Source of the DNA: Actinomycetota bacterium
GTDB taxonomy: Bacteria; Actinomycetota; Acidimicrobiia; Acidimicrobiales; WLNW01
Assembly (NCBI GenBank): GCA_043738925.1
Contig: JAYUFA010000311.1
Location: 1-33,424 of the forward strand
Direction of reading: 5' to 3'
DNA: 33,424 nt
The notes beneath the pieces were generated by a model. That model was not told the DNA's origin and made no database searches. It saw only the letters and a list, made by a program, of their open reading frames with translations. Within the stretch, counting starts at the first letter, position 1. Every line of letters begins with the position of its first letter. This document shows, one piece after another, positions 12,439-32,638 of this stretch. Position numbers and translations under genes: made by a program.

Positions 12439-12439
12439 T

Positions 12440-12936: not shown

Positions 12937-12955
12937 CTACGACAGAATGTCGGAG
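12937..12955. promoter_or_regulatory. Putative BlaI-type operator (CTACGA-N7-TCGGAG)
   Basis: Matches the window-wide palindrome; directly abuts ATG 12956; contains CAGAAT 7 nt before that ATG. Confidence 0.65.
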
Positions 12956-13510
12956 ATGAACATCCGTCGTCTCACGAACCCAACGGCGATCCGAAACATC
13001 GGGATGGTTGTCGTAGCGCTGGTCGTCGCCTTCGTCGTTAGTCGTGCTGCGTTACGCCAACCGTCGCTGCCGAACTTCGAGCCGGCCGGATCTCGGCTTG
13101 CTCTGCCGGCGTCAGGGGCGTTGCAATCGGTGTCGCTGAGCGAGTTCGAGGGCGTTCTTGTCGGGCAGACGCCCAGGCCGGTAGTGGTCAACGTTTGGGC
13201 GTCTTGGTGTGCGCCGTGCCGATCGGAAATGCCGTTGTTGCAGCGAGCATCAGCGAGGTATGCGGGCCGGATTGTGATGCTCGGGGTTGCCTCGAACGAT
13301 GACCGAAGTGCGGCTCAGGCATTTCTGACCGAGTTCGGCATCACCTATCCGAACGTTTTCGATGACAGCGGCGAGATACGTGTACGTCTTGAACTCACGT
13401 CGTTTCCGACCACGTATGTGTTCGGCGCGAACGGACGGCTGCGCTCGCGCGTGAACGGTGCCATCTCGGAACAGAGGCTCGCCGCGCTCATCGAGGATGC
13501 ACTCCGATGA
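12956..13510 (+). CDS. TlpA/ResA-family thiol:disulfide oxidoreductase, membrane anchored
   Basis: N-terminal TM, VVVNVWASWCAPCRSEMP, cis-Pro FPTT; start could also be 12947 or 12920. Confidence 0.88.
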   Translation: MNIRRLTNPTAIRNIGMVVVALVVAFVVSRAALRQPSLPNFEPAGSRLALPASGALQSVSLSEFEGVLVGQTPRPVVVNVWASWCAPCRSEMPLLQRASARYAGRIVMLGVASNDDRSAAQAFLTEFGITYPNVFDDSGEIRVRLELTSFPTTYVFGANGRLRSRVNGAISEQRLAALIEDALR

Positions 13511-14223
13511 TCGACTTCGGGCTGTTGGCCAGCATGTTGATCGCGCTCGGCGTTCCTTCGCTGCTCGCTCGATGGTGGCCGATTAAAAATGTGTCAGGTC
13601 GGGGTACGTTCGTCGACGGGGTATTTGGGCCACTCGGTGTTGGAATCGCTGTTGGGCGTATCACCGCACTGGCCCTGGACGACCCCGGCGCGCTCGGCCG
13701 ATTGTCGGACTTGCTCATCATCCGTAGCGGTGTCGAGTTCTGGCCAGGCTTGGGTGCCGCTCTGATCGTGTTGGCGGTCGGCGCCCGCCGCGCCGGAGAA
13801 CAGCCGTTGGAACGGATCGCGGCGTTCGGTCCGTTGTCTTTGGTTGCCTACGGCCTCTTTGAGGCGACGTGCCTCCTGCGCGGCGGTTGTTACGGCCCGT
13901 CAGCCAGACTCGGGCTGAGACCAGCTGGCTTGGGAACGACGATGCTGCCGGTCGGGATATTCATGGGAGTGGCCATGGTGATCGGTTCGTTCACGCTCAG
14001 ACTGGCGGGACGCCGAGGCGCTAGCGCCGTAGTTCTGACAAGTGGCGCGTTGGCGGTACTTGCATCAGTGCGGTCGGTGGCGTCGATCTGGCTGCCAAAG
14101 GTAAGCCCGGGTTTAACAAGGGCCCATCGCACGTCGCTCTTTGTAAGCGCAGGTGCGATGGTGGCGCTCGGCGCAACGATCGGGTCGCAGAGGCGACGAC
14201 GAGTAGTGGCGGGCGAGCGATGA
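13507..14223 (+). CDS. Lgt-like (prolipoprotein diacylglyceryl transferase-like) membrane protein, divergent
   Basis: GIAVGRI, LLIIRSGVEFWPGL and TCLLRGGCYG resemble Lgt motifs (IWxGGLxFxGG; GRxGCFxxGCCYG); ATGA overlaps on both sides. Confidence 0.55.
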   Translation: MIDFGLLASMLIALGVPSLLARWWPIKNVSGRGTFVDGVFGPLGVGIAVGRITALALDDPGALGRLSDLLIIRSGVEFWPGLGAALIVLAVGARRAGEQPLERIAAFGPLSLVAYGLFEATCLLRGGCYGPSARLGLRPAGLGTTMLPVGIFMGVAMVIGSFTLRLAGRRGASAVVLTSGALAVLASVRSVASIWLPKVSPGLTRAHRTSLFVSAGAMVALGATIGSQRRRRVVAGER

Positions 14224-15071
14224 ACGCGCCCATCGCGCTCGCAGTAGCCGCCGGTATGGTCGGAGCGATCAACCCGTGCGGTTTCTCGTTGCTGCCGGCG
14301 TACGTAAGTCTCTTTGTTGCTAGCGAAACGAACGATTCGCCGCTCGACCAGCGTCTTGTTCGAGCCGGTATCTCGTCGGTCTCGGTAACGGTTGGTTTCT
14401 TAGGTGTGTTCGTGACCCTGGGAGTTTTGCTCGATTCTGTTCTCCGTGCTGTCAGACCGTCTCTCCCGTGGTTCACGATGGCTGTCGGGGTTCTTATCGT
14501 CGGCGCAGGTCTGGCTGTCGTTTGTGGCAAACGAATTCCATTTCCGTCCGCATCCTTGCCGGCGATCTCGGGAAGGGGCCCGGCAGCCATGATTGTGTAC
14601 GGGATCGCCTACGCCATCGCCTCGCTCTCCTGCACACTGGGGCCGTTCTTGGCGGTTACCTCGACAGCGCTGGATCAATCAGTCGCGGAAGGGCTCGTTA
14701 CCTTCGCCGGGTACGCGATCGGCATGGGCACAATCATCGCCATCCTCGCAATCAGTGTCGCTTTCGCCCGCCCAGGTGCCAGTCGGCTGCTCCGAAGGAC
14801 GTCTCGTTGGTCGTCGAGGACCGGTGGGGTGTTGATGATTGCCAGCGGCACGTACGCGATCTGGTATTCCCGATGGGAACTAGGTGTGTATAACGGAGAT
14901 CTGAACCGCGATTCGGTTGTTCAATTTGGCGAGCGAGTCCGATCCAACACGATCGCACTTATCGAACGACTCGACCCGATAGCGATCGTCGCGATCGTCA
15001 TCGTCTCGTTCGGCTTCGTGTTGGCCTATACGATCAGCCGTCGAGCCAATCTTCAAAGAGATGCGACGTAG
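14220..15071 (+). CDS. ccdA: CcdA/DsbD transmembrane-domain protein
   Basis: INPCGFSLLPAY and SLSCTLGPF redox Cys pair; 6+ TM segments. Confidence 0.87.
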   Translation: MNAPIALAVAAGMVGAINPCGFSLLPAYVSLFVASETNDSPLDQRLVRAGISSVSVTVGFLGVFVTLGVLLDSVLRAVRPSLPWFTMAVGVLIVGAGLAVVCGKRIPFPSASLPAISGRGPAAMIVYGIAYAIASLSCTLGPFLAVTSTALDQSVAEGLVTFAGYAIGMGTIIAILAISVAFARPGASRLLRRTSRWSSRTGGVLMIASGTYAIWYSRWELGVYNGDLNRDSVVQFGERVRSNTIALIERLDPIAIVAIVIVSFGFVLAYTISRRANLQRDAT

Positions 15072-15119
15072 CGATTTGTGCTGCTCCCTCCAGGATGTGT
15101 TTGCCCGGGCGTACCGAAA

Positions 15120-15169
15120 TCCCGGAGCGGCTGGCATCGCAGCCGCTCCGGGAGGGTCGGAATCGACCC
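15120..15169. terminator. Tandem hairpins, probable (bidirectional) terminator between convergent ccdA and mgtA
   Basis: Perfect 14-bp stem TCCCGGAGCGGCTG/CAGCCGCTCCGGGA (15120-15153, 6-nt loop) followed by GGGTCG-GAAT-CGACCC (15154-15169); short U-tract on - strand. Confidence 0.75.
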
Positions 15170-15171
15170 CA

Positions 15172-17913: not shown

Positions 17914-18107
17914 CTTGGGGCCAGGCCGTTGCTGGCGCTAGTCGCGAATGTTCGCCGTGTCGAACGTGACGCGACACCAGTCGGAGCGAAGCCGTGTTGC
18001 CCCTCGCTCCCTCCCGACTGCCGGTTGGGTCGTTCGATGGCGTGTCCAAGGCGGAAAGCTTGGCCTGACGCCGGGGTCAAGTCCGGCTCTGGTTCATGGG
18101 TCGGCAT
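17910..18107 (-). CDS. Possible Pro-rich leader ORF translationally coupled to mgtA
   Basis: AGGA shortly before ATG 18107; begins MPTHEPEPDLTP; stop overlaps mgtA ATG (ATGA); mgtA has no SD of its own. Confidence 0.3.
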   Translation of the reverse strand: MPTHEPEPDLTPASGQAFRLGHAIERPNRQSGGSEGQHGFAPTGVASRSTRRTFATSASNGLAPR

Positions 18108-18201
18108 TGGCTTCCTAGAGTTTGCTTGTCGTTCGAGTTTTGGTCTGGGGACGGGGTGGGTTATCACCAATCGTCTGGTGACCACCTTTCTGCCGGCACC
18201 G

Positions 18202-18316: not shown

Positions 18317-18393
18317 ACCGATTCGAGTGCGGGGCAGTACGGAGGCGCTCGCCGTTTCGGGTCGCTCGCTTGATAGAGCGATAGCACGGGGCG

Positions 18394-19450
18394 TCACTCG
18401 TCAAAGCGGGCTTCTGTTGCGGGGCGGGCCGAGTTCTGAAGCTGGGTTGCGTACGACGGTCGCAAGTAGGACCGCTGGGCGGACACAGTTGAAGAGCTCG
18501 TAAGGAGGCCTTGCGACTGGGGGAGGACCCTCCCGGCGACTTCGTATGGGCGGCGATGCGGGTCTCCATCGGCGGGTGCGTTGCAAAGAGCCGGTTGAAC
18601 CAGCCGTGCGCTCCCTTGGATTGCTTGTCGAGGGGGGACTCGATCCACAGGTGGGCGGTGGCGGCGAGGGCGTGACCGATCACGTTGGGATTAGCTCGGA
18701 GCTTTTCGAGGGCCGAGATGAGGCCGTCGGGATTCCGGGTGATAGCACGCCGGACACGTCGGCGAGGGCTTCGCGGCGGCGCGAGATCGCGAGCTGCATC
18801 GTTTTGGCGGCGAAGGGGGCGAGGATGATGAACACGAGGGCGAGGGTGTAGATCTGCGCGCCTTCGCGGTCGTTGTTGCGGCGACGGCCGCTGGTTCCGC
18901 CGAAGAGCAGCAGTCGCAGCCCGAAGTCGGAAAGCAATGCTACGAAGCCGACGAGGGTGACGGCGATGGTGCCGACGAGGATGTCGTAGTTGCGGATGTG
19001 GCTGAGTTCGTGGGCGAGGACGCCTTCGAGTTCGGCGCGGTCCATCAGGTCGAGCAGGCCGGTCGTCACCGCGATGGCGGCATGGTCAGGGTTGCGCCCG
19101 GTCGCGAATGCGTTGGGGGCGGGATCATCGACGATGAAGAGTCGAGGCTTAGGAAGCCCGACGCCCAGGCAGAGCCCGTCGATGACGTTGTGAAGTTGGC
19201 GGTATTGCGCTGGTTCGGCTGTCCGTCCGTGGGCGGCGGCGATGGCCAGCTTGTCGGAGTAGAAGTAGCTGCCCCAGACCATGGCCAAGACCACGATGAC
19301 CGCGATCGCGATCAACATGGGGCCGCCCGCGAACACCAGGTCGAAGACAGCCAATACAGCGGTGATTAACACGGTGAACCCGGCCATCAGGTACACGGTG
19401 CGGCGTTTGTTGCCGGCGATTTGCGCTAGCAGGTCATGACGTTCAGTCAT
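18394..19450 (-). pseudogene. htpX: HtpX/M48 zinc metalloprotease with two apparent 1-nt deletions
   Basis: PNAFATGRNP, HELSH, SRRREALAD; frame jumps at about 18744 into ITRNPDGLISALEKL...ATAHLWIESP...FATHPPMETRIAA and probably again at about 18548 (RIAA-L-YEVAG). Confidence 0.85.
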
Positions 19451-19519
19451 CGCTGTGTCGTCTAGTCGCGGAGCCCGCTGGGCTGTCCGAGCACACGGTC
19501 GGGTCAACGCTCATGCTCA

Positions 19520-20077
19520 TCAGAACCGGACGCTGACGGGTGCCGCGGCGCCGGGCTCAGACTGGAAGAGCTCCCGGATCCTGAAGTGCATGGGACCCGC
19601 GATAAGAGTGCGCGGGAACGTCTGGATACGCGTGTTGTAGCCGAGCACACGCTCGTTGTAGAACTGGCGCGAGTAGGCGACTCGGTCCTCGGTCGAGGTC
19701 AATTCCTCTTGAAGTGCCGAGAAGTTCTGATTCGCTTTCAGGTCCGGATACGCCTCGGCGACGGCGAAGAGGCTCTTCAGCGCGCCGGTGAGAACGTTCT
19801 CGGCTTGCCCTCGTTGCTGCGGCGAACCGCTCTGTCTGGCGTCGATGGCGTTCGCCCGCGCCTGAGTCACCGTCTCGAAGGTTCCGCGTTCGTGTGCGGC
19901 GTAGCCCTTGACCGTCTCGATCAGATTCGGGATCAGGTCGTGACGGCGTTTGAGCTGCACATCGATCTGCGACCAAGCGCTGTCGCACTGATTTCTGGCT
20001 CGAACGAGCCCATTGAACATCCATGCCAACATCAATAGGGCGAGCACCGCTATTGCACCAATCAGGATTGCGATCAT
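19520..20077 (-). CDS. lemA: LemA family protein
   Basis: AWSQIDVQLKRRHDLIPNL, AVAEAYPDLKANQNF, RQFYN, FP; GGGAG RBS; canonical position upstream of htpX. Confidence 0.93.
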   Translation of the reverse strand: MIAILIGAIAVLALLMLAWMFNGLVRARNQCDSAWSQIDVQLKRRHDLIPNLIETVKGYAAHERGTFETVTQARANAIDARQSGSPQQRGQAENVLTGALKSLFAVAEAYPDLKANQNFSALQEELTSTEDRVAYSRQFYNERVLGYNTRIQTFPRTLIAGPMHFRIRELFQSEPGAAAPVSVRF

Positions 20078-20285
20078 TCTTCGACTCCCTTGTTCTTCGA
20101 ATTGAGCGGCACGTGCCTGCGAGCCCGAGACGGCGGGGCTGCTGCCAGGCTGGCCCCACAACCATCGTCTGCCGAGGGCCGCGCCGCATCCGAGACAACC
20201 ACGGATCCGGCTTCGGGAAATCCACCTACCGGGGTCATCCCAGACCCTGCTTTCCGAGACCGAAACGGGGGGCAACTTCCTGGCG

Positions 20286-20915
20286 CTATTTCTCCGCCAT
20301 TCGGGCGAGTTCTTGGCGCTGGCGCTCAGCATCAGCACGGGCCCGAGCAGCCTCGGCCTCCTCGCGTCGGCGGCCTTCATCTGCGACGAGTTGTACGAGT
20401 TCACCGCTCACCTTCAACGCCGGTGTCGCAAGTTCGGCCCGGACTTTTGTGATAGCGACCGTCTCTGTTTCTAACTGTTTGCCCAGCGCCGCAAGCCGCG
20501 CTTGTTCGCTCGCAAGTTCCTTTCCGAGCCGCTCGGTGTCTTGTCGCTCGGCCCGAAGCTCATCGACCTCGTCCGAAGCGGAGCCCACGAGCACCGAGGC
20601 GTAAACTTCGGGGGCGGCCGACAAAGATCCACCCGATCCGTCAAACGAATCGACCAGGTCAGCAAGCGTGATCTGCTGAACGTAGATGTATGAGTGGACC
20701 GCAGCATCAACAACGTCTTTGTTGATAGTCGAGACCGCTGCAGACCGGTCCGCGATTGCGGCCTCAGTCACCTTCACTTCATCGGTCACCTGCTCAAGCC
20801 TGAGTTTGGTCTCCATGCTCTGCTCGTTGATGCGTTCGGCCCGCTGAATGAGAGCTTCACGGTTCGTCTCGTGCATACCGGCCCTGCCGAAGCGCACGCG
20901 GTCGACATAACTCAT
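20286..20915 (-). CDS. Coiled-coil protein, probably a truncated PcsB/CwlO-like stalk
   Basis: Heptad-rich E/A/R/Q sequence with central DAAVHSYIY..LADLVDS break; no signal peptide and no catalytic domain before the TAG. Confidence 0.5.
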   Translation of the reverse strand: MSYVDRVRFGRAGMHETNREALIQRAERINEQSMETKLRLEQVTDEVKVTEAAIADRSAAVSTINKDVVDAAVHSYIYVQQITLADLVDSFDGSGGSLSAAPEVYASVLVGSASDEVDELRAERQDTERLGKELASEQARLAALGKQLETETVAITKVRAELATPALKVSGELVQLVADEGRRREEAEAARARADAERQRQELARMAEK

Positions 20916-21013: not shown

Positions 21014-21823
21014 ATGCTGAACCGACGAAAGTTCATCGTAGGCGTGGCTTCGGCGACCGTTGCCGTCGCCGTGCGTTCGAGCAGCGCCGGGGCGACAACT
21101 CTTGGTGAGATCGCAGTTCGAGCAGCCCGCAGCCAGCTTGGCGTTCCCTACAAGTGGGATGCCGAGACTCCCGGCGTCGGCTTCGACTGCTCTGGCTTGA
21201 CAGCTTGGGCATGGCGACAGGCCGGCATCGAGATGGATTCTTACACCGTCTCGCAGGCAGCGGCGTTTCGGGAGATCAGCTACGATCAAATCGTACCCGG
21301 CGATCTTGTCTTCAACACCTCGCTCGGTCATGTCGTGATCTACGCAGGCAATGGCCGATGCATCGAAGCGAGGCGTACCGGTACGCTGGTTCAGGAGAGC
21401 CCGAACACGATGTCGGCATTGTGCGTGCGCCCGACGCTGCTTCCCGTTCGAGTGGTGCCATCGGGGGTTGCCAATGGTCGAGAGATGCTGATCGCCGAGC
21501 CCGGCGACTCGCTTAACGGCATCGCGTTGGCGAGAGGCATACAGCTTGTGCCGTTCGCTCGAATGAACGGGCTTTCTCCGTCGTCACCATTGCGTCCTGG
21601 CGATAATATTGTGCTGCCATCAGCCGTGAAAACCCTTCCGCCGCCGACCAGCACCCCGAAGGCCATCCCGGCTGCCGCTGCGTCGACCTATGTCGTGCGC
21701 CCAGGGGACACGCTGTCTGGAATCGCGGCCCGATTCGGTATGACGGTCGCGCGTTTGGTCAAGCTCAACGGCATCGCTGACTCAAATCGAATCACCCCAG
21801 GAATTGTACTGAAGTTGACCTAA
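21014..21823 (+). CDS. NlpC/P60 peptidoglycan endopeptidase with Tat signal and two C-terminal LysM domains
   Basis: MLNRRKFI twin-Arg motif plus AGA cleavage site; QLGVPYKW, FDCSGL, GHVVIY; LysMs PGDSLNGIA and YVVRPGDTLSGIAARFG. Confidence 0.88.
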   Translation: MLNRRKFIVGVASATVAVAVRSSSAGATTLGEIAVRAARSQLGVPYKWDAETPGVGFDCSGLTAWAWRQAGIEMDSYTVSQAAAFREISYDQIVPGDLVFNTSLGHVVIYAGNGRCIEARRTGTLVQESPNTMSALCVRPTLLPVRVVPSGVANGREMLIAEPGDSLNGIALARGIQLVPFARMNGLSPSSPLRPGDNIVLPSAVKTLPPPTSTPKAIPAAAASTYVVRPGDTLSGIAARFGMTVARLVKLNGIADSNRITPGIVLKLT

Positions 21824-21827
21824 CTAA

Positions 21828-22676
21828 CTAACTGAGTGGCTCCAGTGTCGAAGGTGGAGGTGTCGATTGCCAGTAACTCACCGAGTAACGAAATCGCGCC
21901 GACCGCGTGACCGCAGTTTGTGTCAGCCATCCGCATTCTTCGAGGGTGCTCGCCGCTGTCGGATTTATGTAGGCGATCCGAACTGATCTCGGTTGGGCTT
22001 CGATGGATGCCCGCAGACATTCGAGCATGGAACGCATGGTGTGCAGGCCGAAAGGATTGAACAGCACAACAACGGTCACCTCGGAGAAGTCAAGAGTCGC
22101 AGCATCACCGGTGAGAACCGTCGTCGGCGACTTCTTGGCCGGTCGTCGGCTCAGGTTAGAGCGAGCTGCCTCCGCGATCAGTGGGTCACATTCGACACCG
22201 ATGACCTGGCGGGCTGGACCGCGAGCAGCCATGACCAGTACTCGTCCCAGTCCGCACCCGACGTCCATGACGACATCATTCCTCGTTGGACCCAGGGTGC
22301 GCAGCACTTTGCGGGCTTGGCCGTAGGCCAGCGGTACATAGAGGTGAACATCCTCGCCGGCGGTCACTCCCCGGGGAACGAGCACAGTTTCTGTTTTGAT
22401 ACCTCGCCATCGATCCTCTGCGCTGGCGGTGAGCCCGCGCCAAAGGCCGAACAGTCGTCGAAGGGCGCCGAACTCCCGAGTTCGGTCCGGTATCCGAGTT
22501 GCACCACGCCCACGTAAGCCATCTCGCCGGTCCTCCTCGCTGCAGCGGCCCTTCACGCGCACCGCATAGAACAAATGTCGGAACGCCCAGCGACAAGCCC
22601 GCCGGTCCGAGCAAGATCCGCGGCGGACCCGATCGACAACGTTCTTTGGGCCATGACGTCGAGCATCTCTCCACAC
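21828..22676 (-). CDS. Class I SAM-dependent methyltransferase (start uncertain, may be shorter)
   Basis: VMDVGCGLGR motif I, GVECDP motif II, GDA, LFNPF, IAYINP. Confidence 0.75.
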   Translation of the reverse strand: MWRDARRHGPKNVVDRVRRGSCSDRRACRWAFRHLFYAVRVKGRCSEEDRRDGLRGRGATRIPDRTREFGALRRLFGLWRGLTASAEDRWRGIKTETVLVPRGVTAGEDVHLYVPLAYGQARKVLRTLGPTRNDVVMDVGCGLGRVLVMAARGPARQVIGVECDPLIAEAARSNLSRRPAKKSPTTVLTGDAATLDFSEVTVVVLFNPFGLHTMRSMLECLRASIEAQPRSVRIAYINPTAASTLEECGWLTQTAVTRSARFRYSVSYWQSTPPPSTLEPLS

Positions 22677-22849
22677 TAACTCCTACGAAATGTAGTTGAG
22701 TTGATCCATGAGGGAGTCCACGCACAGCCAGCATACCGCCCAAGGATTCGACGCACAGGCTTCCGCGATTGTGGGCTGGCGTTGAGGACGCTCACTCCGG
22801 CGCGGGCCAACCGGCGTAGAGTCCATCCGAGGTTGATGAGCCACTTAAC

Positions 22850-23171
22850 TCATCGCCGCAGGGCGGCCATGGCGTCGCTGCCGTGGTCCATGACCTGCGC
22901 GTCGAACCAACTGTGAAGCCCAGCGACCAACTCGTGCTTGGTCGTGACAAAAATAATCTGGGCACCGTTACTCAGCTCGGAATACGTCGTGGTGATCTGC
23001 GCCGCGCCAGCTTCAATGCGGCCAAGCCCGGCATTTCAGCTCGATAATACCGGCGGGGTCATCGAACATACCGGCCGAGAACTTGGGGGAGTGCTGCACG
23101 TTATGAAACGTGCCAGATCAGGAACGAAGGATGTTGCGCTGATCCGCGGACACCTGCAGAGCGAGGCCACC
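22850..23171 (-). pseudogene. Remnant of a conserved hypothetical protein (family often labelled 'aspartate carbamoyltransferase'), frameshifted, with inverted internal segment
   Basis: - strand 23084..22850 reads KFSAGMFDDPAGI/H..AEMPGLAA/EAGAAQITTTYSELSNGAQIIF...LHSWFDAQVMDHGSDA; the preceding part GGVLHV...DVALIRGHLQSEAT is on the + strand at 23085-23171. Confidence 0.65.
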
Positions 23172-23268
23172 GCACACATCGTGCACCGCTAAAGCATCCA
23201 TGAAGTTGTCATGACGGGGTCCCTGATGGATTGGAGTTCGAGCATTTCGTCGGCCCGTGACCGGGATG

Positions 23269-25218: not shown

Positions 25219-25236
25219 CGTGAGTGGGACCCTGAT

Positions 25237-25255
25237 CTACTAAGCGGTATCGTAG
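25237..25255. promoter_or_regulatory. Putative BlaI-type operator (CTACTA-N7-TCGTAG)
   Basis: Palindrome extended by AT on both sides, 18 nt upstream of copC/D ATG; TACAAT -10-like hexamer on - strand at about 25257-25262. Confidence 0.75.
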
Positions 25256-25367
25256 ATTGTAGCTGTCGGGGTTGCTGATACCCGGCGGTGAGTTGCCTCC
25301 AGCCGTGAAGGAGCTGTCTACGAGTGTTGCGCATGACGACCACCGGACACTCGATTTCGCTGTCACC

Positions 25368-25646
25368 GGGATGGCGATCTGCAGGGGCACCGACGTGGCC
25401 ATCGAATTGTCTGATATCCCGCGACTTTCGGCCGAGCTTGGTGTCGCCACCGCGGTGCGGTTGGCGCGGCGCACGTTCCGCACGATCCTGCAGAACCTTG
25501 GCTGGGCGTTCGGGTACAACATCGTGCTTATCCCCGTCGCCGCGTTCGGTCTGCTCAACCCGATCCTCGCCGGCGCAGCAATGGCGTTCTCGAGCGTGTC
25601 GGTCGTCGGTAACAGCCTGCGCCTCTACCGGTTCGGCGAGCGGTGA
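25368..25646 (+). pseudogene. 3' remnant of a second Cu P1B-type ATPase
   Basis: [17 protein letters not shown]...[10 protein letters not shown]...[19 protein letters not shown]: only the last about 90 aa, degenerate, with no DKTGT or CPC. Confidence 0.85.
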
Positions 25647-25653
25647 CGCCCCG

Positions 25654-26088
25654 ATGGTGACCTCGATCCATGCCGGTCGTCGGACGGTTTGGGTCGAACT
25701 GGCCGATCGATGGCCGGCCTGGACTTTCGCGGTCGTCGCCGGTGGCCTCGGTGCGATAGCGCTGGCCGTGTGGGGTTTGCCCGCGTGGGATTTCCACGGG
25801 CCGTTTCATCGTTTCGGTGTGATGGACCCGCTGTGCGGCATGACCCGAGCGGTGCGCTTCGCAGCCAGGGGACAGCTTCGTTCGGCCTGGCGGTACAACC
25901 CCGGCGCGTTCGTGCTGGCAGTAATCGCGATCGTCGGTGTCCCACGGATCATCGCCGGTACCGTTTTCGGCCGGTGGTGGGCGGCGCGTCTCGGCTCGAA
26001 GCGCGTCTGGATCACGATCGGCATCGTCGCCGTCGTTGCCCTGGAAATCAACCAGCAACTCCATGCCACCCTGCTGCGTGGCCCGTGA
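25654..26088 (+). CDS. DUF2752 family membrane protein
   Basis: P...FGVMDPLCGMTRA...AWRYNP motif; ATG 7 nt after the remnant's stop. Confidence 0.78.
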   Translation: MVTSIHAGRRTVWVELADRWPAWTFAVVAGGLGAIALAVWGLPAWDFHGPFHRFGVMDPLCGMTRAVRFAARGQLRSAWRYNPGAFVLAVIAIVGVPRIIAGTVFGRWWAARLGSKRVWITIGIVAVVALEINQQLHATLLRGP

Positions 26089-26723
26089 GCGACAACCAAT
26101 CGGCCGTCGGCCCCGTCGCTGCATCGGACAACGGGTTTGAGCCGGTCGTCGAGGAACCTGCGGCACCGGTACCCCACCGCTCCCGCAGGTGCCGGACCGG
26201 TGTTGTCATCGCCGGAATCATTACGACGATCGGGATCGTCGCAACCGGTGCTGCCCTAGCAGCAAGGTTGAACACGCCCGCTGGAGGGCCGCTCGTCGGG
26301 CACACCGCGCCGTCGTTCACGCTATCGGCCCTGGCCGCCGGGGAGCCCGATGTGTCGCTCGATGCGTTCCGGGGGAGGCCGATGGTGATCAATGTGTGGG
26401 CGTCGTGGTGTGTGCCGTGTCGACGCGAGATGCCCGACTTCCAAGCCGTACACGTCCTGCTCGGTGACCGGGTCGCGTTCGTCGGGATCGACCATCAGGA
26501 CGCCAGAAGCTCTGCGATCGCCTTCGCCCACGAAACCGGAGTCACCTACCCATCGGGTTTCGACCCGCAAGGCACCGTCGCCGCCGACTACGGGCTGTTG
26601 GGCCTGCCGACGACGGTTCTTGTCGCGTCGGACGGTCGGGTTGTTGCCGAAGTGAAAGGTGCCCTCACCCGCGAGAAGCTCCTGAAACTCATCGCGGACC
26701 GCCTCAAGGTAACGGCGGCCTGA
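26085..26723 (+). CDS. TlpA-family thiol:disulfide oxidoreductase
   Basis: GTGA overlap; TM anchor; INVWASWCVPCRREMP; GLPTT. Confidence 0.88.
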   Translation: MSDNQSAVGPVAASDNGFEPVVEEPAAPVPHRSRRCRTGVVIAGIITTIGIVATGAALAARLNTPAGGPLVGHTAPSFTLSALAAGEPDVSLDAFRGRPMVINVWASWCVPCRREMPDFQAVHVLLGDRVAFVGIDHQDARSSAIAFAHETGVTYPSGFDPQGTVAADYGLLGLPTTVLVASDGRVVAEVKGALTREKLLKLIADRLKVTAA

Positions 26724-26795
26724 CCGACCTCGACGGCTGGGTACGGGCACCGAACACGGCATCGTTGACGTATCCGGATGACCGGCACGCGCCCA

Positions 26796-27500
26796 CTACG
26801 GCACGGTGCTGTCCGTCGGTGACGGTCCGCTGCGGTACTTGCCGTTCTTGCTCGTGACCGTCTCCCCGTTCAGGACCCGCTGCAGAACGTCGTCCAGGGT
26901 TGTGGGGCCGACTGCGCCGATCAGGCGGGCCATGACCCGCCCGTCGGGGGCGACAAGGAACGTTTCGGGCACCCCTCGGACACCGAAGTCGATCGCGGTG
27001 CGACCGTCGGGGTCGTTGATCAACGGGTAGGTCAGCCCGAACTCCTCGCGAAACCGGCGGGCGTTCGAGACGGTGTCGCTGTAGAGGATGCCGACGAGCA
27101 CGACACCGTCAGCTTGATGCTGCTGGACGAACCGTTGCAGATCGGCCGCTTCTTCCCTGCATGGCACACACCATGACGCCCAAAAGTTGATCACGATCAC
27201 TGCCCCGGCAAGCCGTGACGAGTCAAGGGTCGTGCCACCCTGAATCGTCGGTAGCACGAACGCGGGCATCGCCCGACCGATCAGCGGTGACGGCGCAACC
27301 TGCGCCCGGTTCAATCCGCGGGCGAGCACGCTACTGAACCCAATCACACCAATCGTCACAGGGATAGCAAGCCACCGCAAACCACGACGCCGACGCGAGA
27401 GACCACGTGGCGAATCAGCCCGTGACCCCGCGGGCACCACCTCCGGCTCGATCACAGCGTCGTCAACGGAGGGTGGAGGCGAGTCCCGTTCGGCAACCAT
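26796..27500 (-). CDS. TlpA/CcmG-like thiol:disulfide oxidoreductase
   Basis: TM anchor, PSPLIGRAMPAF, INFWASWCVPCREE, FGVRGVPETF (CcmG/DsbE-like). Confidence 0.88.
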   Translation of the reverse strand: MVAERDSPPPSVDDAVIEPEVVPAGSRADSPRGLSRRRRGLRWLAIPVTIGVIGFSSVLARGLNRAQVAPSPLIGRAMPAFVLPTIQGGTTLDSSRLAGAVIVINFWASWCVPCREEAADLQRFVQQHQADGVVLVGILYSDTVSNARRFREEFGLTYPLINDPDGRTAIDFGVRGVPETFLVAPDGRVMARLIGAVGPTTLDDVLQRVLNGETVTSKNGKYRSGPSPTDSTVP

Positions 27501-27510
27501 GACCACGAAG

Positions 27511-27529
27511 CTACTATCTAAAGTCGTAG
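27511..27529. promoter_or_regulatory. Putative BlaI-type operator (CTACTA-N7-TCGTAG)
   Basis: GCTACTATCTAAAGTCGTAGC, 10 nt upstream of the tlpA/ccmG-like ATG. Confidence 0.75.
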
Positions 27530-27641
27530 CCGCTGACAGGGCTGGGCGCTGTTCGATGCTACAACGCCAACGCAACAGCTTCTCCAACGTCCAACCATCT
27601 CGGAGCCCCGCAAGCGGACGTGACTCGGGCCGCGGCTATTG

Positions 27642-27660
27642 CTACTATGTTACCTAGTAG
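27642..27660. promoter_or_regulatory. Putative BlaI-type operator (CTACTA-N7-TAGTAG, perfect arms)
   Basis: 35 nt upstream of the DUF2933 ATG. Confidence 0.78.
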
Positions 27661-27695
27661 TCATCGGTGTGGTGACCTCATCCGAAGGAGTTCTC

Positions 27696-27983
27696 ATGAA
27701 ATGCATGAACCGTAAGGTGCTGATTGGCCTCGTCGCGGTCGCCGGACTGCTGTTCTTTGCCGCCCCTTCGGCGCGGGGTGCGCTCCCGCTGCTCGTGGCT
27801 CTCGCCTGCCCGTTGTCGATGGTCTTGATGATGGGTGGCATGGCCAAGGTGATGAGCGGCAAGACCGATGACAGCAAGAACTCATGCGCTTCCGGTGGCC
27901 CGGCGCCAGAGGAAATCGTCGCTGCGAAGGATGCAGAGATCGCCCGGCTCAACAGCCTGCTGCAGCAACAGCCAACCCGCTAA
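27696..27983 (+). CDS. DUF2933 family small membrane protein
   Basis: AAGGAG RBS at 27685-27690; LLVALACPLSMVLMMGGM signature; C-terminal short coiled coil. Confidence 0.78.
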   Translation: MKCMNRKVLIGLVAVAGLLFFAAPSARGALPLLVALACPLSMVLMMGGMAKVMSGKTDDSKNSCASGGPAPEEIVAAKDAEIARLNSLLQQQPTR

Positions 27984-27994
27984 ACCCGGCGTTT

Positions 27995-28477
27995 CTAGCC
28001 GCCCTGTTGCCTGTCGTTGATCGCCGCTGCGACCAGTTCCCGGTCCGAATCCGATGGGGGACCGGGCCGTTGGGCACGCCACCGTACGAACGCGACGCCC
28101 AGCCCGGTAGCGCAACCTAGGAACGCTACGACTGGGAGTAGCCAGACGAGTCCGACGATCCCGTGGGGTGAGGGTGACAGCAGAATGTCGGGCCCGAACC
28201 TGGTCGCCATTGCTTGGCGGATCGTGTTGTCGCTTTCACCTTCGGCGATCCGCCGTTCCAGGTCGGCGCGAATGTCACGCGAAGCTGGGGCTTCAGATTG
28301 GGCGACGGACTGGCCGGCGCATGTCGGACACTTGATCGTCGCGGCGAGCCGCTCGACTCGTTCCCCGGTTGTTCGCGGTGCCCGATTACCGACCGCAGCG
28401 ATCGTGAGTGCGATGGCGAGAACGACGATCGACAGAAACCACACCCAGGCTGTCGTGTTGCTGCGAATTCGCTTCAC
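27995..28477 (-). CDS. ccmH: Cytochrome c-type biogenesis protein CcmH
   Basis: IKCPTCAGQSVAQS, RFGPDILLSP, WLLP. Confidence 0.9.
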   Translation of the reverse strand: MKRIRSNTTAWVWFLSIVVLAIALTIAAVGNRAPRTTGERVERLAATIKCPTCAGQSVAQSEAPASRDIRADLERRIAEGESDNTIRQAMATRFGPDILLSPSPHGIVGLVWLLPVVAFLGCATGLGVAFVRWRAQRPGPPSDSDRELVAAAINDRQQGG

Positions 28478-30456
28478 GGCTGGGTGACCGTAACTAGCTC
28501 GTCGGGCACGTCGATGACGGAAACGGCATCTGGCTGGGTGAGCCGAGATGGGTGGCGAGGTTTACGGTTCGGGATGATCGACAGGGCTGTCCCGAGGGCC
28601 ATAACCGCGCCGCCGGTCCACAGCCACACGGCGAGCGGCATGATAACCACGATGACACCGATCGGGCCTTGGGTGGGGAGGTCGACGATGCTGAGGTAGA
28701 CGTCTTCGGACAGCGAGTTGGCGATCGCCGGGGTGCCGACCGTCTGGGATGATCCGTTGAATTGCTGCAACGCCGGTTTCAAAAGGCGGTCACCGTCAAC
28801 CAAGATGAGAGCGCGGCGCTCGATGAGGGATCGGCCGATGACCTGGTCGGTCGAACGGAATTCGAGGGTGTGACCGGCGAACACGACCGGTTTGCCGGGT
28901 TCCAGTTGGAGTTCGATCCGCCGACTGTACGCACCCGCTGCGGTCACCGCGACGGCGAGCATCACGAACCCGAGGTGAACGACCATCCCACCACCCGACG
29001 CCCCCAGCAGCCCTCGCAGGCCGTGGCGGCGAATATTCATGGAGAGCTGTCGGGTGGCGGCACCCGCAGCTGCACCGCCGAGCGCGAACCCGACCGCCGG
29101 AACGAGACCGCGAGCGCCGAAAAGCACAGCGGCGGCGAGGACGGTTGCTGCGCCGGCTACCGAGGTGGTCAGCCGTTGGCGGAGCAGCGCGGCCGACGAC
29201 ATGCGCCACGGCAGGATCGGGGCGACGGCCATCAGCGTGAGCAGGGCGAGACCGATCGGTATCGCCATCCGATCGAAATAGGGTCTGCCGACCGAGATGC
29301 GGGTGCCTCGCAGCGCCTCAATGACGAGCGGGAACACCGTGCCCAACAGCACCACGAACGCGAACAGGGCGAACAGGGCGTTGTTGATCAGGAACGCGGC
29401 CTCACGCGACGCGACTGCGTCGATCGCTCCGGCGGAACGCAGTCGTTGCCCGCGCCAGGCGATCAGACCGACGCTGGTCAGCACGATCACGGTGAAGAAC
29501 CCGATGATCGCCGGGCCGATGTTGCTTTTGCTGAACGAGTGGACCGAGTCGAGCACCCCGGACCTGGTGAGGAATGTTCCGAGGATCGTGAGGCTGAACG
29601 TGGCGCACAGTAGCGACAGGTTCCACACCCGTAACATGCCGCGCCGTTGTTGGGCGAGGACCGAGTGGATGTAGGCGGTGGCGGTCAGCCAAGGGAGGAA
29701 ACTGGCGTTTTCGACCGGGTCCCACGCCCAGAAACCTCCCCAGCCGAGCACCTCGTAACTCCACCAGGAGCCGAGCAGGATCCCGACGGTCAGAAAGCCC
29801 CAGGCCATCAGCGTCCACCGGCGGGTGATCACCAACCATCCGTCATCGACGCGTCCGGTGACCAACGCCCCGATCGCGAACGCGAACGGTACAGAGAAAC
29901 CGACGTACCCGAGATACAGGATCGGTGGGTGGAACGCCATCAGGATGTGGTTCTGCAGCAGCGGGTTCGGGCCGGGACCGTCCAGCGGGATCGGTGGTGC
30001 GGTGAGGCGGAACGGGTTTGATGGGCCGGCCATTAACCCGAAGAAGAAGGCGCAGATGGCGAACAGTGCGCACATCGCCCAACCGACCAGCGGATCGTCG
30101 AACCGGTGACGGAACCTGACGACCACCGCGATCAGATAGCCGGACAGGATCAAGGCCCATAGCAGGATCGAGCCTTCCAGCGCCGACCACATCGCCGCGA
30201 CGTTGAACAACGCCGGGGTCCGTGAACTCCCGACGTGGGCGACGTAGGCGAGGTGGAAGTCGCGGGTGATCAACGCCCGTTCCATCGCCACGACCGCGAG
30301 CACCGCCCCGAACCCGACGAGCAGCGCGTACCGTCTCGCCCAACGCAGCTGGCGAACATTCCCGGTACGGGCACCGATCGCCGCGTTGAACGCGCCGACG
30401 ACCGACCCGCCGAGCCCGAGCGAAACGCCCATCAAGCCGATCGCCGCGTTCAACAC
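28474..30456 (-). CDS. ccmF: Cytochrome c heme lyase subunit CcmF/NrfE
   Basis: WSALEGSILLW, GPNPLLQN, HPP, WWD motif WSYEVLGWGGFWAWDPVEN, TRSGVLDSVHSF; GTG at 30456 with GGAGG RBS. Confidence 0.95.
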   Translation of the reverse strand: MLNAAIGLMGVSLGLGGSVVGAFNAAIGARTGNVRQLRWARRYALLVGFGAVLAVVAMERALITRDFHLAYVAHVGSSRTPALFNVAAMWSALEGSILLWALILSGYLIAVVVRFRHRFDDPLVGWAMCALFAICAFFFGLMAGPSNPFRLTAPPIPLDGPGPNPLLQNHILMAFHPPILYLGYVGFSVPFAFAIGALVTGRVDDGWLVITRRWTLMAWGFLTVGILLGSWWSYEVLGWGGFWAWDPVENASFLPWLTATAYIHSVLAQQRRGMLRVWNLSLLCATFSLTILGTFLTRSGVLDSVHSFSKSNIGPAIIGFFTVIVLTSVGLIAWRGQRLRSAGAIDAVASREAAFLINNALFALFAFVVLLGTVFPLVIEALRGTRISVGRPYFDRMAIPIGLALLTLMAVAPILPWRMSSAALLRQRLTTSVAGAATVLAAAVLFGARGLVPAVGFALGGAAAGAATRQLSMNIRRHGLRGLLGASGGGMVVHLGFVMLAVAVTAAGAYSRRIELQLEPGKPVVFAGHTLEFRSTDQVIGRSLIERRALILVDGDRLLKPALQQFNGSSQTVGTPAIANSLSEDVYLSIVDLPTQGPIGVIVVIMPLAVWLWTGGAVMALGTALSIIPNRKPRHPSRLTQPDAVSVIDVPDELVTVTQP

Positions 30457-30513
30457 GACCCGCGGCCTCCGCCAGGTCCGACGTGCCCGTCGATGCGCCC
30501 ACAAACCGTTCTC

Positions 30514-30532
30514 ATACTAAGTAGCTTAGGAG
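30514..30532. promoter_or_regulatory. Putative BlaI-type operator (ATACTA-N7-TAGGAG)
   Basis: Two mismatches to consensus; in the ccdA-ccmF intergenic gap. Confidence 0.6.
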
Positions 30533-30549
30533 CAACGGGGGTGATGTGT

Positions 30550-31272
30550 TCAAAAAGGTGGCCAACCGAAGCGGGCGAACGTTCGTTGTAACGGAATGAA
30601 AAACGTGCGCCACACCCCGGTGACGAACAGCAAACCAACCCCGACAAGCAGCATGCCACCCAGTCGTTCCACCCCTCTGGCGTGTCGGCGCAGCCACCTC
30701 GTCGAGTTCTTCGCCCGGCCAAGGCCGAGAGCGAGCCCGACAAACGGCAGGCCAAGCCCGACCGAATACAACAGCAGCAACACCGCACCCCACACCACGG
30801 TGCGGGTCGCTGCCGCAGCGGTCAGGATGGTCGCCAGCACCGGACCGATACACGGTGCCCAACCGAACGCGAATGCGGTACCCAACAGAAACGCCGAGCG
30901 CGGACCAGGCCGAACATGGTCCAACAGGCGTCGTTCCCGGTTCAGGAACGGCACCCGCAGAACCCCGAGCATCATGAGTCCCATCACAATGATCGCAACC
31001 CCGGCAACCCGGGTGATGACCGGCACTCGGCGCAACAACACCGAGCCGATCAGAGCGAACGACACGCCGAGCGCGGTGAACACCAACGTGAAACCGGCAA
31101 CGAAGAACAACGACGCCCGCAACGCGATCTTGCGTGACGCCCGACGGTCGAGTTCGCTCATCGGGAGACCAGAGATGAACGACACGTATCCGGGCAACAA
31201 CGGAAGGCAGCACGGAGACGCAAACGAGATCGCCCCGGCGACAAGCGCGAGGAACGGCAAAATGAACACCAT
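30550..31272 (-). CDS. ccdA: Cytochrome c biogenesis protein CcdA
   Basis: SFASPCCLPLLPGY and FAFGWAPCIGPVL; YSVGLGLPF. Confidence 0.92.
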   Translation of the reverse strand: MVFILPFLALVAGAISFASPCCLPLLPGYVSFISGLPMSELDRRASRKIALRASLFFVAGFTLVFTALGVSFALIGSVLLRRVPVITRVAGVAIIVMGLMMLGVLRVPFLNRERRLLDHVRPGPRSAFLLGTAFAFGWAPCIGPVLATILTAAAATRTVVWGAVLLLLYSVGLGLPFVGLALGLGRAKNSTRWLRRHARGVERLGGMLLVGVGLLFVTGVWRTFFIPLQRTFARFGWPPF

Positions 31273-31291
31273 CAACTATAAAGCCTAGTAG
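31273..31291. promoter_or_regulatory. Putative BlaI-type operator (CAACTA-N7-TAGTAG)
   Basis: One mismatch; flanked by CAT/ATG; directly abuts ccdA ATG. Confidence 0.7.
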
Positions 31292-31304
31292 ATGGTTGGA
31301 GGGT

Positions 31305-32246
31305 TTAGCTGAGGCAGAAGTTCGGCATTGTCAGCACTACCCAGAAGTTCGCGACAACCACAGCGACCGAGAACAACATCCCCGCCCACAGGGCGCTCAA
31401 CGACCCGAACGCCATCACCGTGGAGCGTGGTGTGCTGGTGGGTGCCGGGTGGTCCAACGCGGTTATCCGTTCGACCACCGTCTCCAACCCACCGAACGCA
31501 GCGACATCAACCGACAGACCGGCGAGAGCTACCCCGACCAACGCCCGCCGGGTGATGTGGCGTGCTTCGACCTCGGTGCCCGAAGCTTCCTCGTCGGCCC
31601 ACCGTTCCAACGAACACCGCAACTGATCGGTGGCAATCCGGGCCCACGGGAAAGCCCGCAACCCGCATTCCGCGGCGGCGGCGAGACGCAACAGCAGGTG
31701 ATGTCGATGCTGCAGATGGGCCTGCTCATGGCGCAACACCGCATCCAACTCGGCGCCCGACAACTTGGCGATCAACGTGTCGGACACCACGACCGCACCG
31801 CCATACGCGGCGACGCACAACGCCACCGGGTCAGGCGACGTAACAACAACAACCGGATGCCCTGCGACGGTCGTCGGGCGACCGAGCAACGCGACTTCGG
31901 ACATGGCGTGCTGGGCTAAACGGGCACGCCGGTAGCCGAGCGACACGGCCATCGGCAACATCAACGCGCCAGCCGTCGAGACCCACCCGATCCACGGTGC
32001 GCCGATCACCGCGTGGCTCGCCATCCGTGCGCATCGTGCAGCCAAGCCGTGCGCACCGACCGCCCGAAGCACAACCGGTGCTCCCAGCGAAACGGCGACC
32101 AATTCTGTCGCGACGAGCGCACCGACCAGCGACACCGCGATTGTTTTCGCGGCGAGCGCCGGATGAACGGTGCGGAGCCAACCGCGAGCCAAGGCAGGTG
32201 CCGCGCCCAGGACAACGGCGAGCATTGCGAGCAAGAACACGGTCAC
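31305..32246 (-). CDS. M56-family (BlaR1-like) membrane zinc metallopeptidase without penicillin-binding domain
   Basis: 3 N-terminal TMs, ELDAVLRHEQAHL (HExxH), ERWADE, C-terminal TM; GTGA overlap with blaI. Confidence 0.87.
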   Translation of the reverse strand: MTVFLLAMLAVVLGAAPALARGWLRTVHPALAAKTIAVSLVGALVATELVAVSLGAPVVLRAVGAHGLAARCARMASHAVIGAPWIGWVSTAGALMLPMAVSLGYRRARLAQHAMSEVALLGRPTTVAGHPVVVVTSPDPVALCVAAYGGAVVVSDTLIAKLSGAELDAVLRHEQAHLQHRHHLLLRLAAAAECGLRAFPWARIATDQLRCSLERWADEEASGTEVEARHITRRALVGVALAGLSVDVAAFGGLETVVERITALDHPAPTSTPRSTVMAFGSLSALWAGMLFSVAVVVANFWVVLTMPNFCLS

Positions 32247-32599
32247 TGGGCCAGCGTCCTGCGCAACTGCGCCCGATCGGCATCGCTCAACTGCCCGACG
32301 AACTGGGTGAGCACAACCGGCCGATTCTCAACCGCACCCAACACAGACGCCATTGTTGAGGCGGTGCGAGCCTCGCGGGTCTGCACCGGATGGTAGGCGA
32401 ACGCCCGACCGTCACGGCGACGCTCCAGCACTCCCTTATCGCACAGGTTCGACAGCACCGTCATCACCGTGGTGTACGCCAACTCGCGGCGGGCCACGAG
32501 CACGTTGTGGACCTCACCGGGCGTCATCCAACCCGTCGAATCCCACAGAACGTCGAGAACCTCTGCCTCCAACGGTCCGATGCCTTTGCCAGATGCCAC
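32243..32599 (-). CDS. blaI: BlaI/MecI/CopY family transcriptional repressor
   Basis: GPLEAEVLDVLW, LAYTTVMTVLSNL..KG, RRDGRAFAY; GTG at 32599 with AGGA RBS. Confidence 0.9.
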   Translation of the reverse strand: MASGKGIGPLEAEVLDVLWDSTGWMTPGEVHNVLVARRELAYTTVMTVLSNLCDKGVLERRRDGRAFAYHPVQTREARTASTMASVLGAVENRPVVLTQFVGQLSDADRAQLRRTLAQ

Positions 32600-32619
32600 A
32601 GACCAAATCCTACCACCAC

Positions 32620-32638
32620 CTACTAAGATCGATCGTTC
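32620..32638. promoter_or_regulatory. Putative BlaI autoregulatory operator (CTACTA-N7-TCGTTC)
   Basis: One perfect and one 4/6 half-site, 20 nt upstream of the blaI start. Confidence 0.55.

Follow-up and report, generated by a model that had tools for sequence, protein, structure and literature searches.

Palindromic boxes at copper, thiol-redox and cytochrome c maturation genes in an acidimicrobial contig: a candidate regulon of a BlaI repressor with a sensor-less M56 protease

Most BlaI/BlaR-like pairs have no beta-lactam sensor, and the signals and regulons of these pairs are described as unknown (PMC13492132). The same source states that about 6 % of M56 proteins carry this sensor and that the sensor-less form is the commonest M56 architecture. 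Here, we describe a pair of this kind in a 33,424 nucleotide (nt) stretch of DNA, referred to as the window, that makes up contig JAYUFA010000311.1 (C311) of an Actinomycetota bacterium (assembly GCA_043738925.1; 3.86 Mb in 570 contigs, 65 % G+C, 87 % complete). The closest named relatives of this genome are Acidimicrobiia metagenome-assembled genomes. The window includes blaI, the gene for an adjacent M48/M56 membrane protease, and palindromic boxes on or near the starts of tlpA1 and the Lgt-like and CcdA-like genes behind it, the CopC-CopD gene, a copA remnant followed by tlpA2, tlpA3, a DUF2933 gene, and ccdA followed by ccmF-ccmH (Table 1). On balance, comparisons between genomes make it probable that the boxes are operators of the BlaI encoded at 32243-32599 and that BlaI and the protease control copper, thiol and cytochrome c maturation (Ccm) genes, with copper or thiol state as a possible signal.

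The only copper-linked sensor-less BlaI/BlaR-like pair that we found in the literature is PetR/PetP of Synechocystis sp. PCC 6803, which was overlooked in a preliminary description of the window that knew of no regulon of this type. As in the window, a BlaI-family DNA binder and a sensor-less M48/M56 protease of ~300 amino acids (aa) are encoded by overlapping genes; PetP has four helices, a number also suggested by eye for the window protease. It is reported that PetP degrades PetR when copper is present, that the PetR box has a GACA-N3-TGTC core and that the loop that joins transmembrane helices 2 and 3 (TM2-TM3 loop) of PetP contains candidate copper ligands (bioRxiv 10.1101/2020.07.31.226407). 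The operator is an inverted repeat; its core, GAC-N5-GTC, also forms the inner portion of the boxes in relatives of the window genome and of the window box at 12937. PetR/PetP comes from a different phylum, and is likened here on the basis of its published description and the shared family. The closest relative of the window BlaI with a solved structure is 2g9w (E 2.5e-17), in which the recognition helix (LAYTTVMTVL in the window) is nearly identical. We take 2g9w to be BlaI (Rv1846c) of Mycobacterium tuberculosis, where the partner BlaR (Rv1845c) is likewise sensor-less and the regulon is said to comprise blaC and ATP synthase genes. According to a 2025 paper, cell-division genes also belong to it. 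The CopY/CopR/TcrY repressors of Firmicutes are in the same DNA-binding family, control copper genes and use a related operator (KACANNTGTM core; PMC7253601), and CenIR of Clostridioides difficile combines a BlaI-like repressor with an M56 protease that has no transpeptidase domain, in control of a small envelope-related regulon (PMC13492132). A functional analogue only is ScsABCD of Salmonella, in which accessory DsbD-like and thioredoxin-like proteins are reported to be induced during copper stress of the envelope so that its thiols stay functional (PMC10907172).

In the preliminary description, seven sites of the form CTAC(T/G)A-N7-T(A/C)GTAG were proposed. Three of these (25237, 27511 and 27642) are exact, and shuffled sequences gave 0.00 such matches. 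The sites at 12937 and 31273 deviate by 1 mismatch, and those at 30514 and 32620 by 2. When up to 2 mismatches were allowed, 11 matches were found in the window, compared with 1.14 expected and a shuffle maximum of 4. Sites were also scored with a weight matrix made from 17 boxes found in other genomes only, but this is not free motif discovery as the boxes had been picked by pattern. Relative to the 2,423 intergenic bases of the window, each of the five strong sites (12937, 25237, 27511, 27642 and 31273) is expected 0.000 to 0.008 times. Thus, five of the seven sites are far above chance, and those at 30514 and 32620 are not. All seven are, as had been stated, near start codons (0-35 nt from gene starts, which are inferred choices). 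A strong box at 22680 had been missed. The weaker match that had been pointed out within the NlpC/P60-LysM gene at 21023 is expected 0.29 times per 33.4 kb and is the weakest of the above-chance boxes.

In this genome, the box is CTACTA(A/T)-N5-(A/G/C)T(A/C)GTAG and in relatives it is CTAC(G/T)AC-N5-GT(A/C)GTAG, each 19 bp. The GACA-N3-TGTC core is present in the boxes of relatives and at 12937, with TA(A/T) replacing GAC in the remaining window boxes. In L040, a related locus with ~87 % DNA identity to the window, the boxes at 25237 and 31273 are each identical in 19/19 positions, with both flanks substituted in the first case and changes just upstream in the second. All that speaks for the sites at 30514 and 32620 is the word ACTAAG together with position. 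ACTAAG is rare, with 20 copies in the genome and 3 in the window (0.17 expected), and is contained in 30514. The genome has 6 copies of the word CTACTAA, and the half-site at 32620 (18/19 identical in L040) occupies the position of the autoregulatory boxes present in 47 of 80 actinobacterial loci. One further half-site, CTACTAA at C268:3451, was dropped; it is within a different palindrome, before Fur/PerR-like and rubrerythrin-like genes (identified by eye). The sequence at 30514-30532 is itself a different perfect palindrome, CTAAG-TAG-CTTAG, which might be a separate element and not a degenerate BlaI box.

The boxes track blaI across genomes. Homologues of blaI were found in 18 of 61 related genomes, and the exact form CTAC(G/T)AC-N5-GT(A/C)GTAG occurs 11 times in nine of these 18 and in none of the 43 genomes without blaI, where a backwards control pattern gave 17 matches in 13 genomes. 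G047 enters these tallies as a blaI-bearing genome that lacks an exact box, and no further conclusion draws on it. No p-value is given, because kin are not independent. Nine of the 11 exact boxes are within 5.3 kb of blaI, and the remaining two are before a tlpA gene (in G005) and after ccdA (in the window's own genome). If 1 mismatch is allowed, 17 of the 28 boxes in five relatives are on the contig that carries blaI, and in the complete 2.0 Mb genome G012 neither of the two boxes is more than 1.5 kb away from it. Among named actinobacterial loci, the 47 of 80 already mentioned carry a box with no more than 2 mismatches at a distance of 5-170 nt upstream of blaI, against a background of 0.0067 per 165 nt. 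At least 12 genera are represented, including Nocardia (15/15), Actinoplanes (4/4), Paractinoplanes (4/4), Kribbella (4/4), Rhodococcus (3/3) and Streptomyces (1/18). In the Mycobacteriales (Nocardia and Rhodococcus) the form is TTAC(G/T)AC-N5-GT(A/C)GTAC, ~58 nt before blaI. Upstream of the tlpA1 orthologues of five genomes (the window and four others), the box is the only conserved block.

Further genomic context is provided by a tree of 95 BlaI rows, from which G047 rows and fragments shorter than 90 aa were omitted. The window BlaI is in a group of 10 rows (Shimodaira-Hasegawa-like approximate likelihood ratio test support, SH-aLRT, 88), eight of which have copper or thiol genes as neighbours. 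In a 66-row clade of other actinomycetes, the neighbours are mostly ABC-transporter or NlpC/P60 genes.

These data bear on the possibility that the boxes are not operators of the window BlaI but remnants of promoters duplicated with paralogous genes, or sites for another regulator that travels with blaI. The copCD boxes of the window and of contig C495 do appear to be duplicated together with their flanks, several of the targets are paralogous (three tlpA, two copCD and three ccdA-like genes) and two of the claimed sites are only half-sites. However, the same palindrome is found before DUF2933, Lgt, multicopper oxidase and DUF305 genes, which are not homologous, and before blaI itself, in the latter case in at least 12 genera, and it is missing from the 43 genomes that lack blaI. 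Across the compared loci, no gene for a different regulator is consistently adjacent. We consider this explanation very unlikely. Both the conservation upstream of orthologous genes and the association with blaI agree with the regulator named in the preliminary description, and its BlaI/M56 regulon is supported to this extent, with the sites before ccmF and blaI excepted.

Within the 3.86 Mb genome, exact CTAC(T/G)A-N7-T(A/C)GTAG occurs five times, three times in the window and once each at C13:1096 and C495:9470. The box on C495 precedes a second CopC-CopD gene paired with a DsbD_TM-like gene, and that on C13 immediately follows a CcdA gene, close to which there is an Lgt gene (C13 2133-2705). 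Of the matches that score at least 12.5 in crudely defined intergenic DNA, 6/12 fall in the window, or 7/13 if 27511 is included. The C495 box heads a second metal island (C495 1864-9469), with genes for CopC-CopD, the DsbD_TM-like protein, a cation diffusion facilitator, a ZIP transporter and a P-type ATPase on one strand. A second blaI paralogue is on contig C303 (about 314-735), with an M56-like gene downstream and a divergent ABC transporter. The shared promoter region there contains two TACGAC-N4-GTCGTA boxes, the only ones in the genome, and the recognition helix is VAYTTVAKVL. Each BlaI paralogue therefore has its own spacing class.

The genes flanking the boxes in relatives were examined by scanning 20 of the 45 open frames next to boxes (up to 1 mismatch) in Acidimicrobiia loci. 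The 20 were selected by short distance to the box and by length, and frames identified by tblastn or overlapping known genes were omitted. Eleven belong to copper or thiol families, namely CopC-CopD (three), DUF305 (two; a copper-linked family), multicopper oxidase, cupredoxin, Caa3_CtaG (in G026), TlpA-like redoxin, rhodanese and Lgt. A further box precedes another Lgt gene, and one precedes a copA-blaI-M56 operon, the copA of which was identified by tblastn. Lgt or Lgt-like genes were seen beside boxes in four genomes (window 13507-14223, L044 8454-9308, L147 1449-2396 and C13 2133-2705), which suggests that extra Lgt paralogues share the same control.

A different signal is conceivable for the same repressor and operators. 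If the protease answered general cell-envelope or peptidoglycan stress, the copper genes would simply be carried along in a local island. In M. tuberculosis, the sensor-less BlaR reportedly acts through this type of stress. There is also the possible box in the NlpC/P60-LysM gene, 16 of the 95 rows of the tree have an NlpC/P60 gene ~2 kb downstream of blaI-M56, and most BlaR-like proteins are described as having no known ligand (PMC13492132). However, the genes flanking boxes in Acidimicrobiia are mainly copper and thiol genes, the neighbours in eight of the 10 rows of the window group are of the same kind and the NlpC box is the weakest one above chance. This makes the explanation rather unlikely. 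The 16 rows with NlpC/P60 neighbours are from Streptomyces, Actinoplanes and Amycolatopsis, and loci with this arrangement include L048, L052, L054, L063 and L064; together with the weak NlpC box, they may reflect an old link between BlaI and peptidoglycan hydrolases.

The direction of the copper response could also be the reverse, with a supply regulon that answers copper scarcity through CopC-CopD uptake and through assembly of copper and haem c respiratory enzymes by TlpA, CcdA, CcmFH and CtaG. TlpA-type proteins are known assembly factors, and the Caa3_CtaG gene in G026 is preceded by a box. Furthermore, CopC-CopD fusions resemble YcnJ, the proposed copper importer of Bacillus subtilis (PMC13344008). 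In contrast, the boxes of relatives precede genes for copA-type efflux ATPases, multicopper oxidase and DUF305, which are typical of responses to excess, copper removes the repressor in the PetR/PetP system, and no Sco protein was found in the 87 % complete genome. A role in copper supply appears improbable, to about the same degree as one in wall stress.

The BlaI protein is an ordinary member of its family, with 94 bits to Penicillinase_R (PF03965; cut-off 22.6) and 95.2 bits in the genome search (domain 32246-32581). The score with the CopY_TcrY model was only 43.4 bits (cut-off 121.95), and the C-terminal CxC(x4CxC) site of CopY is absent, as the single Cys of the window BlaI is inside the DNA-binding domain. 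A Phe is invariant in 13/13 aligned BlaI orthologues and aligns with the F of LVLNF in the MecI and BlaI chains. The residue before it varies, and is Q in the window BlaI; cleavage of Staphylococcus aureus BlaI and MecI is at the N-F bond.

The start of the protease gene overlaps the blaI stop. The protein has an HEQAH motif (HExxH) and four hydrophobic helices, read by eye from the translation, and its score is above the cut-off for Peptidase_M48 (37.2 bits) and below it for Peptidase_M56 (21.5 bits, cut-off 31). It has no C-terminal penicillin-binding sensor domain (no PF00905 match) and ends a few residues past the last hydrophobic segment. In agreement with the preliminary description, no class A beta-lactamase or transpeptidase (PF00905) match was found anywhere on contig C311. 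Two cysteines are found at the position of interest, Cys72 in the TM2-TM3 loop (RAVGAHGLAARCARMASH) and Cys311, three residues from the C-terminus. Cys is the conserved residue of this loop in 19 of 24 Acidimicrobiia rows, and 18 of the 24 have both the loop Cys and a Cys in the last eight residues, four have neither and two have one. One of the 18 ends short, so that its tail is unseen, and two rows are identical. Among 85 homologues, 37 have both cysteines, 40 neither, six only the loop Cys and two only the tail Cys (77/85 both or neither). The Streptomyces clade has the pair, and the clade of Nocardia, Actinoplanes and Kribbella does not. The TM2-TM3 loop of BlaR1 is reported to touch the extracellular sensor domain, and that of PetP bears the proposed copper ligands (bioRxiv 10.1101/2020.07.31.226407). 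Given this placement of the loop, both cysteines should, by analogy, face outward.

Several observations weigh against the reading of the boxes as operators in a copper and thiol regulon. Half of the blaI-bearing genomes (9/18) have no exact box, and the window boxes depart from the consensus of relatives at position 7 (A/T, not C). With the matrix from relatives only, the sites before ccmF and blaI score at chance level; because of this, haem ligation belongs to the regulon only if ccmFH is co-transcribed with ccdA. The loose palindrome CTAC-N11-GTAG is not enriched genome-wide (14 matches, compared with 6-14 at other spacings) and a reversed-genome null attains matrix scores of up to 23.5, with no numerical excess of boxes. 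The signal is therefore in where the boxes are and not in how many there are, with 3/5 exact genome matches in the window. Six of the 20 flanking proteins are unrelated to copper or thiols (FliL, AOX, MgtC, Rce1-like, MerR and a GAF histidine kinase) and three matched no family. A sigma-70 promoter scan near the boxes gave 2 matches, with 3.3 expected. For co-occurrence of the two cysteines there are only about three supported independent contrasts, and the pair is also present in Streptomyces proteases, where the loci mostly include NlpC/P60 rather than copper genes. Finally, CopC-CopD fusions may import copper, which would be a poor fit to induction by copper excess.

We nevertheless favour control of the copper, thiol and Ccm genes by BlaI, and the following sequence of events would account for the arrangement. 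A BlaI dimer would bind the boxes that abut or overlap the starts of at least six transcription units and block transcription. Upon a signal, the presumably co-transcribed, apparently four-helix protease would cut BlaI at the helix with the conserved Phe, and loss of BlaI would free all box-controlled operons together. The signal, for which the case is weaker, may be copper, or thiol oxidation driven by copper, at the membrane's outer face; it is favoured because the targets comprise copper proteins as well as reductant lines that serve extracytoplasmic cysteines. Sensing could be by the TM2-TM3 loop Cys and the extreme C-terminal Cys, where BlaR1 has its sensor domain. The regulon would then handle copper and shield or restore processes that need free extracytoplasmic cysteines, namely the attachment of haem to apocytochrome c and the acylation of lipoproteins. 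Assembly of c-type cytochromes is reported to be blocked by copper (bioRxiv 10.64898/2026.10.17.759849), and lipoprotein acylation to be impaired by it (PMC6538781). The genes blaI, M56, ccdA, ccmF and ccmH are co-directional (32599 down to 27995, minus strand) with gaps of 26-45 nt, and a PAP2 gene is next. Since these gaps are so short, the strong box at 31273 may, speculatively, gate read-through into ccdA-ccmFH. The weak site before blaI might permit basal expression of the sensor pair, though this too is speculation.

A more specific version is that, in this branch of the BlaR1 family, a minimal two-Cys switch that reads copper or thiol oxidation outside the membrane has taken the place of the penicillin-binding sensor and drives a rescue set for cysteine-dependent envelope biogenesis. 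This set would consist of a second haem lyase (CcmF-CcmH), reductant lines formed by CcdA and TlpA, an additional Lgt-like acyltransferase and proteins that handle copper. We put this forward tentatively, as a possibility that is less likely to be right than wrong. If true, it would be an actinobacterial envelope response to copper and thiol stress that has no described counterpart and runs parallel to CsoR.

The gene calls of the preliminary description were largely correct, including those for the CopC-CopD fusion, the copA remnant and the Lgt-like and TlpA-like genes. The features of the window are listed in Table 1.

Table 1. Genes, boxes and half-sites in the window. Genes were identified with Pfam, NCBIfam and Atlas searches; box scores are from the weight matrix.
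Feature	Position	Strand	Basis or remark
csoR	within 9737-10018, domain 9755-9997	-	Pfam/NCBIfam/Atlas searches
copA-type P1B ATPase	10018-12549	-	Pfam/NCBIfam/Atlas searches
copZ	12598-12807	-	Pfam/NCBIfam/Atlas searches
CsoR-like palindrome TACCCCCTATGGGTA	12831-12845		24 nt upstream of copZ
Box CTACGACAGAATGTCGGAG	12937-12955		Immediately upstream of tlpA1; score 25.6, second highest in genome
tlpA1	12956-13510	+	Redoxin/AhpC-TSA match; DsbE/ResA-like
Lgt-like gene	13507-14223	+	Atlas: features 0.94, structure TM 0.80-0.84
CcdA-like gene	14220-15071	+	tblastn cross-matches, 27-31 % identity
P2-type ATPase, LemA/M48 pair, NlpC/P60-LysM gene, methyltransferase	between CcdA-like gene and CopC-CopD fusion		
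NlpC/P60-LysM gene	21014-21823		Family search
Possible box CGACGAAAGTTCATCGTAG	21023-21041		In codons 4-9 of NlpC/P60-LysM gene; score 12.9
Box CTCCTACGAAATGTAGTTG	22680-22698		In stretch without confident gene; score 20.7
CopC-CopD fusion gene, 649 aa	23269-25218	-	Pfam CopC and CopD; NCBIfam CopC/CopD under cut-offs
Exact box	25237-25255		Between divergent copCD and copA remnant; score 16.6
copA-type ATPase C-terminal remnant	25272-25646	+	Aligns to P-type ATPase C-termini in L025, L028 and L035
tlpA2	ends 26723, start uncertain	+	Redoxin match
tlpA3, DsbE/CcmG-like thiol-disulfide oxidoreductase	26796-27500	-	Pfam/NCBIfam
Exact box	27511-27529		10 nt upstream of tlpA3 ATG at 27500; score 18.2
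Exact box	27642-27660		35 nt upstream of DUF2933 gene; score 18.7
DUF2933 small membrane protein	27696-27983	+	Pfam 25.5 bits, cut-off 21
ccmH	27995-28477	-	Pfam
ccmF	28474-30504	-	Pfam
Weak half-site ATACTAAGTAGCTTAGGAG	30514-30532		Upstream of ccmF; score 6.3, expected 0.34 in window intergenic DNA
ccdA	30550-31272	-	Pfam
Box CAACTATAAAGCCTAGTAG	31273-31291		Abuts ccdA start codon, in 26 nt gap after M56 gene; score 14.6
M48/M56 membrane metalloprotease, sensor-less, 313 aa	31305-32246	-	Pfam Peptidase_M48 37.2 bits
blaI, winged-helix BlaI/MecI/CopY repressor	32243-32599	-	Pfam Penicillinase_R; start GTG at 32599
Weak half-site CTACTAAGATCGATCGTTC	32620-32638		20 nt upstream of blaI; score 2.0, expected 1.4

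The tlpA1, Lgt-like and CcdA-like genes form an operon (12956-15071, plus strand), and the same trio is present in L030, L035 and L067. The copA remnant is a frame of 124 codons whose similarity to copA-type ATPases is confined to their final transmembrane part (a Pfam search of the frame gave no match), and it retains the box that the intact gene carries in relatives. The N-terminal half of the tlpA2 frame appears to be non-coding. As a ccmC-ccmE-ccmF set is carried on contig C150, ccmF-ccmH in the window is a second copy. A search of the window against Rfam gave no match.

The csoR-copA-copZ genes (9737-12845) are a classical cytoplasmic copper module, and a second CsoR-family gene is on contig C549. 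CsoR would separately govern copZ-copA-csoR in the same window, and the CsoR-type box of this module suggests separate sensing in the cytoplasm and the envelope.

Other features of the window were noted. A frame at 2806-4527 joins SPW repeats with a vitamin K epoxide reductase (VKOR) domain, and is likely to be a disulfide-forming enzyme on a contig of thiol-reducing genes. At 18680-20404, a LemA gene and, behind it, a gene for an M48 (HtpX-like) protease constitute a second membrane protease pair, which is box-free and unrelated to blaI. Around the strong orphan box at 22680, ~0.9 kb (22340-23268) contains no convincing gene; 22700-23268 has no long open frame, and the N-terminal part of the methyltransferase frame appears to be non-coding. 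The region could be a decayed gene or encode an unannotated small transcript. In L040, window position 31074 (within ccdA) is fused to 25295 (window 25296-31073 against L040 7526-7529), such that tlpA2, tlpA3, DUF2933, ccmH, ccmF and most of ccdA are missing. Either 5.8 kb was deleted in L040 or it was inserted in the window, and both ends are near boxes.

Compared with the described systems, the repressor and operator are of a type that is ordinary for actinobacterial BlaI, and the sensor-less protease has the commonest M56 architecture. The differences are in the genes controlled and in the putative sensor. PetR/PetP is reported to control four genes (petE, petJ and two others), which are not copper-handling, thiol-redox or Ccm genes, and the PetP loop has two conserved Met, whereas the window protease has the loop Cys and the C-terminal Cys. 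For M. tuberculosis BlaI/BlaR, the reported regulon has no copper or thiol theme, and proteases of the Nocardia-type clade lack both cysteines, unlike that of the window. CopY senses copper itself, via the C-terminal CxCx4CxC motif that the window BlaI lacks, and has no protease partner. CenIR is described as controlling a peptidoglycan-related regulon, and the CenR tail is long and unstructured, whereas the tail of the window protease is a few residues ending in Cys (PMC13492132). ScsABCD has an unrelated type of regulator and a Gram-negative setting, and Ccm, Lgt and CopCD proteins are not among its members.

In literature searches, no BlaI-type regulon of copper, thiol or Ccm genes in Actinobacteria was found. 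As far as these searches show, the set of genes in the regulon (those for copper handling, three TlpA, two or three CcdA and a second CcmF-CcmH, and Lgt-like genes), its recurrence across Acidimicrobiia and the paired cysteines at the sensor position are new. The locus connects topics that have been studied separately, namely the toxic effect of copper on cytochrome c maturation, that on lipoprotein acylation, and thiol-reductant pathways. If the proposed regulon is real, it would provide a sensor with its operators, in compact form, for copper or redox stress outside the cytoplasm, and would account for the retention of a second CcmF-CcmH and of additional Lgt-like genes in some actinobacteria. 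Beside PetR/PetP, the locus is a testable case in a second phylum, with a defined operator, about nine candidate sites, coherent targets and two candidate sensing residues.

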